Source: Octopus vulgaris
Lineage: Eukaryota
Length of the DNA: 64,000 nucleotides
NCBI GenBank assembly: GCA_951406725.2
Contig: OX597822.1
Coordinates: forward strand, 92,008,001-92,072,000
Direction of reading: 5' to 3'
The notes beneath the pieces were generated by a model, which was given only the letters and a program-made list of their open reading frames with translations, had not been told where the DNA came from and did no database searches. The position numbers were made by a program, and so were the translations under genes. Positions 5,908-8,561 of the stretch are shown one piece after another (position 1 is the stretch's first letter; each line of letters begins with the position of its first letter).

Positions 5908-6434
5908 GTATGTGGTTGTATTGAATAAATGACGAATTTCTCTTGATTCATTGCCTGGTCCTGTGTCCCTTTAGCTGTATGCTTTCGGTTGCAAGCATTT
6001 GGTCTAAGTTACTGATGTAAAGATAATTTCCTCACTTCCTCCGACCAGTCATAAAAGTTCTAACAAAAGTCAAAGGTTCTGCCCTCTTTCTCACCAAGCC
6101 ATTAAAAAAAAAAAACCATTGCAACATAAGAAAACAAATATTTAAATGAGAACAAAAGTTATTTCTGTCATTAGCACATTTTGGTAAAGTAGTTGGGTTA
6201 ATTTAATAAAACTCCGATTTTGGTTGATTTGATTTAATAAAACTTGGTATTTAAATCCATACTAATGTCATTGCTAAACTCTTTGACAGTTCTTAGCAGC
6301 CCTCACCCCCCTTGGTAAGTGATGGGGAGAGCGAGTCATCTTGAAAGATGCCTTACATGATGTTAATACTTATTCCATTACGATTGTACATTATTTACAT
6401 TTAACAGATATCTGTCCTCATCTTGTTTATTGTT

Positions 6435-6480
6435 AACCCAATGTTTCGGCTGATATACCCTCCAGCCTTCATCAGGTGTC
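6435..6480 (-). ncRNA. Minimal type I hammerhead ribozyme motif
   Basis: GACAC-CTGATGA-A-GGCTG(gagggtatat)CAGCC-GAAA-CATT-GGGTT: intact CUGAUGA and GAAA cores, 5-bp stem II, stem I GACAC/G(T)GTT. Confidence 0.75.
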
Positions 6481-6526
6481 TTGGGGAAATTTTGAACCTG
6501 GGTTCTCATTCCTAAGGTATTTTTCG

Positions 6527-6636
6527 ATGTTGTTGTTGTTGTTGTTGTTGTTGTTGTTGTTGTTGTTGTTGTTGTTGTTGTTGTTGTTGTTGTTGTTGTT
6601 GTTGTTGTTGTTGTTGCTGCTGTTGTTGTTGTTGTT
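6527..6636. repeat. (TTG)n microsatellite
   Basis: About 35 TTG units; the expanded linker of the hammerhead SINE. Confidence 0.95.
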
Positions 6637-6639
6637 GAC

Positions 6640-7400
6640 GACGACGACCAGCGACCGAGACCTTTGGAAATATGCTGTACGTGAGAAGACCAAGCAGGAC
6701 AAGTGAGCCCAGCCCACTTATGAATGCCTTTCCTCCCTTGGACACAAAGACCGGTTGAGGCAAGCGAAGTCGATATACAACCTCATCCAACGACAGGCAC
6801 CCATGCCAACCCCTTTTGCTTGCGAAGACATGTTGGGGCAAGCGAAAGCGAAATCGAAATCGAACTGAACCAGCCAGGATCCCTGTTCTGGTGGTACGTA
6901 AAAAGCACTATCCGACTCGTGGCCGATGCCAGCGCTGCCTCCACTGGCTTCCGTGCCGGTGGCACGTAAAATACACCAATCCAACCGTACGACAGGCACC
7001 CATGCCAACCCCCTTTGCTTGCGAAGACATGTTGGGGCAAGCGAAATCGAATTGAACCAGCCAGGATCCCTGGTCTGGTGGTACGTAAAAAGCACTATCC
7101 GACTCGTGGCCGATGCCAGCGCCGCCTCCACTGGCTTCCGTGCCGGTGGCACATAAAATACACCAATCCGACCGTGGCCGTTGCCAGCCTCGCCTGGCAC
7201 CTGTGCAGGTGGCACGTAAAAAGCACCCACTACACTCACAGAGTGGTTGGCGTTAGGAAGGGCATCCAGCTGTAGAAACATTGCCAGATAAGACTGGAGC
7301 CTGGTGCAGCCTTCTGGCTTCCCAGATCCCCGGTCGAACCGTCCAACCCATGCTAGCATGGAGAACGGACGTTAAACGATGATGATGATGATGATGATGA
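6640..7400 (+). mobile_element. RTE LINE 3' end nested in the SINE linker
   Basis: DRDLWKYAVREKTKQDK* C-terminus, UTR with an internal ~180-bp duplication, (GAT)n tail. Confidence 0.85.
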
Positions 7401-7633
7401 TTATTATTACTCAGGTCACTGCCTGGAATCGAACTCGGAATCTTGGGGTTAGTAGCTCGCACTCTTAACCACTATGCCATATGCCTGTGACGTAGTGGTT
7501 AACAGCGTGGGCTACTAACACCAAGATTCCAAGTTCGATTCCAGGCAGTTACCTGAAAAATAATACTAATAATAATAACAACAACATCGAAAAATACCTC
7601 AAAAATGAGAACCCAGGTTCAAAATTTCCCCAT

Positions 7634-7679
7634 GACACCTGATGAAGGCTGGAGAGTATATCAGCCAAAACATTGTGTT
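7634..7679 (+). ncRNA. Hammerhead motif, degenerate (GAAA changed to AAAA)
   Basis: GACAC-CTGATGA-A-GGCTG(gagagtatat)CAGCC-AAAA-CATT-GTGTT. Confidence 0.6.
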
Positions 7680-8561
7680 GACAACAAACAAGATGAGGAC
7701 AAATATCCGCCAAATGTAAATAATATACATAATTCCTCATCTCTTGAATATAGAACTCCATTACGATTGTTTAGAAAAGATGTATGTATCATTTGTATAT
7801 TGTAAGTAGTATTAAGACATTAATTCTGCGGGTTTTCTATCATGAATTTTTGGTAGTAAGTAGATCGATCCTTCTGTTAGCCAGGCAAGTATTTGTTCAC
7901 ATTCTATCCAGTTGACTTCAGCATTAAACTCTTATCCATTGCTTCATATCTTCTTCCAAAACTCTTCCACCGCCTCAATTTTGGATCGTTCTTTTACCCA
8001 TATCTATTTTTGCCAATTTCCTTATAAAACTTCTTAGCATTGGTTTTGAATATTTTGTTTTGACGATAGAATTTGCTTCTTTTATCATGCCTTCTAACCT
8101 GTAGCTGTGTATAGTTTCAACAGTTTCTTAGCCACAGGAAGAGTTATAAGATCTTTGATTTTATATTTTTGCTTGATTTTTCCAACTTTTCTTGTTTTGA
8201 CATTTACTCCTCTAGAACATCTATTACATCTCACCAGCACAGGTGTCTTTTACATGTGACCGGCACAGGTGCCTGTTACATGTCACTGGCATGGGTGCTT
8301 TTATCTGACGGAGTAGGATATAACCTAGTCAGCTTTTCCATGAGGTAGTCATATCCAATGATTGGTGTAGCAGCATTATAGTCAACTGCTACAAAGATAA
8401 AGTTGACGCCTTAGACTGAATATTTTAACTGTAGCAAAACTTTGTAAAGTGAAACAAAAGAATTCTGTTGCCAGGATATGAACTGTCTCAGACTATAAGT
8501 CCAGCATAGTCTACTGTAATAGCTTTGCTAATGTTTATAACATTTTTCATTTTATTTGCAG

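Follow-up and report, generated by a model that had tools for sequence, protein, structure and literature searches.

What makes two copies of one short repeat lie head-to-head, with overlapping contents, inside a single target-site duplication (TSD)? The question is raised by a locus in the genome of Octopus vulgaris, at positions 6374 to 7770 of the window that we analyzed, a stretch of 64,000 nt of contig OX597822.1 (all coordinates below are window positions). An earlier note, made from the letters alone, had read the copies as members of a family of short interspersed elements (SINEs). We are highly confident that the locus is real, that it records one insertion event, and that it belongs to a Penelope/Poseidon-type element, a Penelope-like element (PLE). 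The pair is very probably that element's terminal repeat (pLTR) in two inverted copies, placed inside one TSD in one event by cutting and priming of both DNA strands.

Layout of the inverted pair

The 14-mer TCCATTACGATTGT occurs exactly twice in the window, at 6374 (left TSD copy, 6374 to 6387) and at 7757 (right copy, 7757 to 7770), so that one 14-bp TSD does enclose a minus and a plus arm, as the earlier note had claimed. The tRNA-like heads of the two arms meet at 7486 to 7489, where two to three letters can be assigned to either arm. The minus arm begins about 3 nt upstream of its head (7489/7486 to 7412) and continues through the leftover 5' portion of an (AAT)n linker (7401 to 7411), a foreign insertion (6646 to 7400, described below), and the 3' portion of the linker, an expanded (AAC)n microsatellite (6528 to 6645). 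Its 3' part (6527 to 6388) holds, judging from alignment and the link to the open reading frame (ORF), the first ∼41 codons of a PLE ORF and a hammerhead motif. It stops at ...AAATAATGT at 6388, which is the short start of the family (tail position ∼141), without the PLE "tail."

The plus arm (7487 to 7756) has a head clipped at its 5' end by about 10 nt (7487 to 7555), an (AAT/AAC)n linker (7556 to 7586), and a 3' part (7587 to 7756) in which an ATG at 7605 opens 51 codons that match the N terminus of the PLE ORF. It is 29 nt longer than the minus arm and ends ...ATATAGAAC at the long start, tail position 170. These 29 nt (7728 to 7756), found on the plus arm only, constitute the PLE "tail" in the sense of the available passages of PMC11167929 and PMC8557442. 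The two arms have ∼140 nt of the tail part and ∼63 nt of head in common, at ∼89 to 90% identity. A second pair of the same family, again with a short minus arm and a long plus arm, lies at 53282 to 53810 between 12-bp TSD copies (53282 to 53293 and 53799 to 53810). Because this pair and 63 of 88 loci sampled in the genome are likewise paired, the arrangement is not due to chance.

The short unit is the terminal repeat of a Penelope-like element

The unit consists of the head, (AAT)n, and the first ∼50 codons of the ORF with the hammerhead motif. At other loci of the same genome, the head is preceded by sequence coding for the end of a reverse transcriptase (RT)/endonuclease ORF, and in 28 of 30 loci selected by their ORF, the ORF end is followed directly by the head (four loci look like segmental duplicates). 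The unit also stands in front of the ORF (L126, L117/L132, and L120) and, in L132, on both sides of it. In L126, head, linker, hammerhead, "tail," and ORF follow one another, with one open frame of 202 codons that is 39% identical to the N terminus of a full-length relative (P0009); the plus arm of the window corresponds to the first 51 of these codons. Since an ORF lies upstream and a frame leads from the supposed SINE into an ORF, the supposed SINE is the pLTR of a Penelope/Poseidon-type element. The idea of an independent SINE family is thereby lost, the head being shared with an ORF-bearing PLE and contiguous with the ORF on both sides.

Longer copies carry an RT domain (Pfam RVT_1, E = 1.4e-10) with 372 homologs, including an 836-aa Anolis protein (P0087) at 44%. 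The C-terminal domain is 30% identical to that protein (E = 5e-24) and 34% identical across the Pfam GIY-YIG stretch of P0025 (E = 3e-24), a homology by which the element probably encodes a C-terminal GIY-YIG endonuclease; Pfam and PDB sequence searches gave no direct match to this endonuclease. Relatives P0001 to P0008 are 60 to 68% identical. Placement in the Poseidon clade, and not with Neptune/Nematis, is suggested by best-hit similarity. Copies are ∼85 to 91% alike, and no intact full-length ORF was seen among them, with stops and frameshifts throughout. When the genome was searched at the protein level for further Poseidon families, all 30 loci returned belonged to this same family.

Among 30 loci selected by the head (8 of which overlap the 88-locus census), 22 had the PLE tail part downstream, and the other 8 reached the (AAT)n linker and broke off, with no common alternative tail seen in those 8. 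Evenly picked stretches totaling 160 kb contained two loci, and the window another two; these 4 loci in 224 kb would correspond to roughly tens of thousands of loci in the genome. Two copies, L373 and L395, share a junction (oriented, ∼1745 to 1750) from tail-coordinate ∼406 in the ORF to head position −6; they may represent a deletion-derived, non-autonomous subfamily with a unit of ∼500 nt.

Copies are mostly paired, with one long and one short arm

We searched the genome with an exact 32-nt hammerhead pattern, which had 2,600 matches. The census comprises 88 loci from the first 100 matches listed, all on contig C1; left out of the 100 were 5 second arms, 3 loci already chosen by their ORF, and 4 loci that were not retrieved. 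A head-to-head inverted partner was present within 1.3 kb at 63 of the 88 loci and a tail-to-tail partner at only 1, so the family is not mostly solo. The 3' ends of arms fall into two classes, near tail positions 138 to 147 (short) and 167 to 183 (long). Among 49 scored pairs, 46 combined a long with a short arm, 3 had two short arms, and none had two long arms (P = 3e-11 for the long/short split if arms were independent).

A TSD of at least 9 bp, with one mismatch allowed, flanked 33 of the 49 pairs, compared with 3.2% of 600 shuffled pairings. TSD lengths had modes at 12 and 13 bp and were mostly 10 to 14 bp (range, about 9 to 16 bp), and the center of the pair differed at almost every locus.

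Some loci depart from this pattern in detail. Short ends often carry an extra AAATAATGT unit (L003, L025, L129, and L074), and some ORF-linked copies (L120) have three; the extra units may be a source variant or the product of reiterated priming. In L217, both arms are short, and the flanks are mutually inverted for ∼34 nt instead of forming a direct TSD.

Do both arms share a source?

Non-CpG derived variants common to both arms numbered 26 in 5,440 sites (80 loci), against an expectation of 7.3 ± 2.6 in 1,000 permutations, or 10 after adjustment for age. At a single dimorphic head site, the arms agreed in 19 of 22 pairs. The single TSD over both arms, the long-plus-short rule, and this excess of shared variants together support the view that each pair arose in one event.

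It is important to note that several observations weigh against one event and a common source. No inverted partner was present within 1.3 kb at 25 of the 88 loci (3' ends of these unpaired copies: short, 13; long, 9; elsewhere, 3), and 14 of the 63 pairs were left unscored, one 3' end being missing or atypical. The shared-variant signal comes from 23 of the 80 pairs, the arms of a pair differ from each other by as much as random arms do (7.7% and 7.8%), and the target locus has no derived variant common to its two arms in 188 sites. Shared variants could also come from gene conversion between arms. An empty orthologous site was not seen among the joints listed for four other organisms; contigs of these organisms pass from the left flank into the left arm, and the site looks filled. 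Moreover, short arms reached further 5' in 25 pairs and long arms in 18 (P = 0.36). This lack of asymmetry gives no support for a leading and a trailing arm on one RNA, and it makes one RNA copied twice indistinguishable from two RNAs of one locus.

A proposed mechanism

Classical twin priming yields non-overlapping inverted halves of one RNA. At the target locus the arms overlap in content, so the pair is not a product of classical twin priming, as the earlier note had argued. Its suggestion that both strands of a staggered cut were primed is likely right, and its appeal to the inverted-terminus habit of Penelope holds; the arrangement is already known for PLEs (available passages of PMC8557442, PMC4209133, and PMC11167929).

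The closest model for the insertion is the Poseidon protein of Anolis carolinensis (PAc), which, according to the available parts of PMC11167929, cuts and extends both strands, is predicted to act as a dimer, and has two internal RT starts early in the ORF, separated by the tail. We propose that the octopus protein would cut both DNA strands ∼12 to 14 nt apart and that each cut strand would prime reverse transcription, one strand using the distal start and the other the proximal one. From the PAc account and the census counts, we infer that cDNA synthesis by the protein, which is likely a dimer, begins internally on the RNA, at two positions separated by ∼30 nt. Both cDNAs would extend to the RNA 5' end and be joined 5'-to-5', often at short homology. 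The template may be a single RNA used for both arms, or two RNAs from the same source locus. Starts inside the 5' pLTR would give the ∼270-nt SINE-like copies, and starts inside the 3' pLTR would give long, 5'-truncated copies. The RNA would begin at the tRNA-derived head, likely an internal promoter of RNA polymerase III (Pol III) with A and B boxes. One point in the same account speaks against the asymmetry proposed here: the strands made by PAc in vitro do not differ in start site, whereas octopus arms nearly always do.

Beside the overlapping kind of pair, the long copies L139 (1308 to 1808) and L140 (3771 to 4646) contain non-overlapping inverted ORF pieces, like those of classical twin priming.

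The tRNA-like head and the start of the RNA

When 65 heads were compared with 25 distinct tRNAs of the genome, tRNA-Arg(TCG) gave the best score (mean, 58, versus 33.5 ± 4.2 for shuffled sequences). The head contains words resembling the A- and B-box consensus at the spacing found in tRNAs; in the left arm, these lie on the minus strand at 7479 to 7469 (A box) and 7435 to 7425 (B box). By these comparisons the head appears to be tRNA-derived and to carry both boxes.

We mapped 90 arm ends in or upstream of the head, of which 34 fell at −7 to +4; a further 61 ends lay in the linker or tail part. The stop rate was 6.1% per nt at −7 to +4, 2.2% per nt at +5 to +16, and 0.2% per nt both upstream and at +17 to +74. 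Exact genome matches numbered 2,521 just inside the head start versus 297 across it, although the tolerances of the two patterns differ. Among 30 copies spanning tail and ORF, those with a head start at −3, −2, +25, and −62, and three of the 30 join an ORF position to the head start; L126 starts at +3 of the head.

No conserved sense-strand run of four T's (T4) was present from the head to the ORF end (∼2.9 kb), the commonest such run occurring in 4 of 25 copies. In decayed copies, 21 T4 runs were observed versus 94.8 expected (0.22), compared with 327 observed versus 231 expected (1.41) in 42 other PLE families. The pile-up of 5' ends at a tRNA-like head and the lack of a conserved TTTT suggest transcription by Pol III. 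Judging from sequence, we lean slightly toward Pol III as the maker of a short RNA and are doubtful that it would make the full-length RNA. A wider scenario is tentative: an autonomous, coding PLE may have captured a tRNA-derived Pol III promoter, purged terminators over ∼2.9 kb, and come to breed its own SINE by internal priming in its 5' repeat, with an asymmetric RT dimer, one subunit per start, making each insertion.

Two metagenome loci, L276 and L273, contain unrelated PLE ORFs that lack sense-strand TTTT over 1.9 to 2.3 kb; the tRNA head was not found in either.

Other results count against a working Pol III promoter. Of five loci, a single one gave a match of the head to the Rfam tRNA model, at just 20 bits (E = 4.4), and no tRNA was called by ARAGORN in 57 loci. 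The absence of T4 was not significant in a codon-shuffle test, and 2 of the 42 control PLE families likewise lack T4. In another PLE family of the octopus genome, the ORF likewise contains no more than 2 conserved T4 runs, and a further 13 lie in the untranslated region (UTR). A short hairpin at the head start could stall RT or favor joining there. In addition, Rfam at the gathering score matched neither a tRNA nor a hammerhead in the window, and single-strand folding z-scores were weak. RNA reads from a related organism, mapped to a long copy, were strand-balanced with a 3' bias, the pattern expected if genomic copies are read through, and so speak neither for nor against the promoter.

In the strongest rival explanation, the PLE insertion is the same and the head is a captured SINE relic; transcription would then come from upstream by Pol II, and the pile-up would arise because RT stalls, or ends are joined by microhomology, at the hairpin and the tRNA fold. 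The near-palindrome at the head start fits this account, as does the smaller excess of ends at +5 to +16, which suggests an effect of structure or joining, and so does the codon-shuffle result. In the available parts of the literature, the Drosophila virilis element Penelope has a LINE-like internal promoter (PMC2377424; LINE, long interspersed element), and Kojima argues that, where an element is of the Pol III type, its autonomous partner depends on Pol II (PMC10886601). However, the stops at −7 to +4 are also seen against unrelated flanks or unrelated partner parts, copies that reach the ORF also begin at the head start, and there are the three ORF-to-head-start junctions. The ends lie at the upstream edge of the tRNA fold and not at its 3' edge, which RT would meet first (stop rate, 0.2% per nt at +17 to +74). 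Finally, T4 is absent throughout the pLTR; control pLTRs, by contrast, are by eye T-rich, with TATA-like words. We consider a relic head possible, though not what we would expect.

The hammerhead motif and an improbable retrozyme origin

The core, stem II, and palindromic stem III of a minimal type I hammerhead can be seen in the pLTR alignment, which scores below Rfam thresholds; the pLTR thus carries what appears to be such a motif. In the target locus, the left-arm motif (6435 to 6480, minus strand) keeps the core CUGAUGA/GAAA and has altered stems III and I, and the right-arm motif (7634 to 7679, plus strand) has a core broken by a change of GAAA to AAAA at 7667. The claim that both arms contain linker and hammerhead is therefore correct as to their presence, but both motifs are decayed, and the right one has lost the G of its GAAA.

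The earlier note had suggested a ribozyme-cut dimer, multimer, or circle as template, and an independent SINE or retrozyme whose dimeric or circular RNA is primed from both strands is a second rival to the PLE insertion preferred here. The motif itself speaks for it, as does the report that animal retrozymes form circles and are proposed to derive from PLEs (PMC7229834 and 10.64898/2026.07.22.740005, in the parts available); the few copies that join the ORF to the head start are also what a circle or a template jump would leave. The hammerhead would cut after tail position 87, and none of the mapped arm 5' ends lies there, the nearest being at 81 and 96; short units repeated head-to-tail are rare, with one clear case in 88 loci (L083). 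Both results run counter to a ribozyme-cut template. So do the contiguity of the unit with the PLE ORF on both sides and the differences between copies in the ORF positions joined to the head. Hammerhead mutations had no effect on insertion by PAc, for which the motif is dispensable in vitro (available text of PMC11167929). We regard this origin as improbable.

Two separate insertions, of which the later hit the 5' end of the earlier one, would accord with the unpaired loci of the census and with the tendency of PLEs to insert in or beside earlier copies (PMC6765202, as far as available). They would not account for the single TSD over both arms in 33 of 49 pairs or for the near absence of tail-to-tail partners, and the long-plus-short rule and the excess of shared variants need the coupling of a single event, so we hold this explanation to be very unlikely. 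A fixed foldback DNA transposon or miniature inverted-repeat transposable element, which the arms of the target locus recall in looking like long terminal inverted repeats, can be set aside almost entirely: the center varies by locus, which rules out a fixed foldback element, TSD length varies as well, the two ends are unequal, and the unit is part of an RT-encoding element.

A nested LINE end and other repeats of the window

The 755-bp segment at 6646 to 7400 (plus strand), absent from the earlier note, is a separate insertion in the microsatellite linker of the left arm. It opens with codons that read ...RDLWKYAVREKTKQDK before a stop, the same as the ORF end at 24474 to 25103, and continues as a 3' UTR with a (GAT)n end. 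Because the codons at its start match an RT-type ORF end and it terminates in (GAT)n, we identify it as the 3' end of a LINE, which we take to be RTE-like; it likely arrived after the pair was inserted. Such RTE-like ends, with internally repeated 3' UTRs and (GAT)n termini, are abundant in the window (6646 to 7400, 5312 to 5691, 14434 to 15136, 25043 to 25581, 36777 to 37337, 55162 to 55701, and 61183 to 61637). The (AAT)n linker of the pLTR is often broken by other insertions elsewhere as well (e.g., L002, L008, L035, and L426).

A fragment of a second, presumably Neptune-like PLE family lies at 42284 to 42943 (plus strand; L351 to L370), with 539 candidates in the genome. Its 3' UTR is long, internally repeated, and rich in T runs, and the tRNA-like head found no match in 20 loci of the family. 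Decayed ORFs at 2267 to 2815 (minus strand), 21063 to 21746 (plus strand), and 40587 to 42097 (plus strand) look like a transposase of the Tc1/mariner type and ends of LINE RTs.

Comparison with known systems

The inverted pair with a one-sided tail is an already published PLE trait. In the passages available, PLEs are described with an inverted, 5'-truncated copy adjoining the 5' end and a 30- to 40-bp tail often at one end only (PMC8557442) and with two minimal hammerheads 100 to 700 bp apart on opposite strands (PMC4209133); the origin of the inverted ends and one-sided tails is called undefined (PMC8557442 and PMC11167929). What is new here are the fixed, different end points of the two arms and the apparently tRNA-derived sequence at the start of the element. 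Neither an autonomous PLE whose pLTR has a tRNA-derived head nor the long-plus-short rule for 3' ends was found in the literature searched (Repbase, Dfam, subscription journals, and supplements lay outside the search), and the term "tRNA" did not occur in the available text of PMC4209133 and 10.64898/2026.07.22.740005.

Together, the long and short arms, the 10- to 14-bp TSDs, and the shared source variants put a sharp constraint on how PLEs insert. Should the head work as a Pol III promoter, Pol III would drive a protein-coding retrotransposon, and a SINE-like family could arise directly from a PLE. Many "SINE" calls in the octopus genome are, moreover, PLE ends, and these leave many hairpins within the genome.

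The octopus unit resembles tRNA-derived SINEs in its tRNA-like head with A and B boxes, its length of under 1 kb, and its interspersed, high-copy-number occurrence. It differs from them in that head and tail belong to the pLTR of an autonomous element, which is mobilized as a PLE and not by a LINE. Octopus retroposons described by Ohshima and Okada in 1994 are said to be of tRNA-Arg origin. The short unit may be one of these SINEs or may already be present in existing repeat libraries (e.g., that of PMC13282606, seen in part).

Like PAc (PMC11167929, here and below as far as its text was available), the octopus element combines an RT with a C-terminal GIY-YIG-type domain, has a pLTR that extends over the ORF start and contains a hammerhead, and uses AT-rich targets. 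In both, two RT starts lie ∼30 nt apart, 111 to 118 nt into the ORF in PAc and ∼120 to 129 and ∼152 to 156 nt after the ATG here. The tRNA-derived head sets the octopus element apart, none being reported for PAc in that text. Published inverted PLE insertions (PMC8557442 and PMC4209133, in part) likewise have an inverted partner and a tail at one end; their descriptions are qualitative, and the long-plus-short rule, TSD lengths, and a shared-variant test were not found in the portions available.

Schistosome Sm-alpha (PMC6765202) also joins a Pol III-type promoter to a hammerhead, and the kinship to PLE pLTRs is shared with animal non-LTR retrozymes (PMC7229834 and 10.64898/2026.07.22.740005). 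As described in the accessible parts of PMC6765202 and PMC7229834, Sm-alpha/Sj-alpha and the retrozymes are non-coding, head-to-tail, and ribozyme-processed, whereas the octopus unit is mostly head-to-head, ends away from the cut site, and continues into an ORF. The TRIMp3 elements Cassandra, Helenus, and Ajax (PMC10886601, in part) likewise have a Pol III-type promoter, derived from a small RNA, within their terminal repeat. These are non-autonomous LTR elements whose autonomous partners are argued to depend on Pol II and to lack this repeat; in the octopus family, by contrast, the ORF-bearing element itself carries the head.

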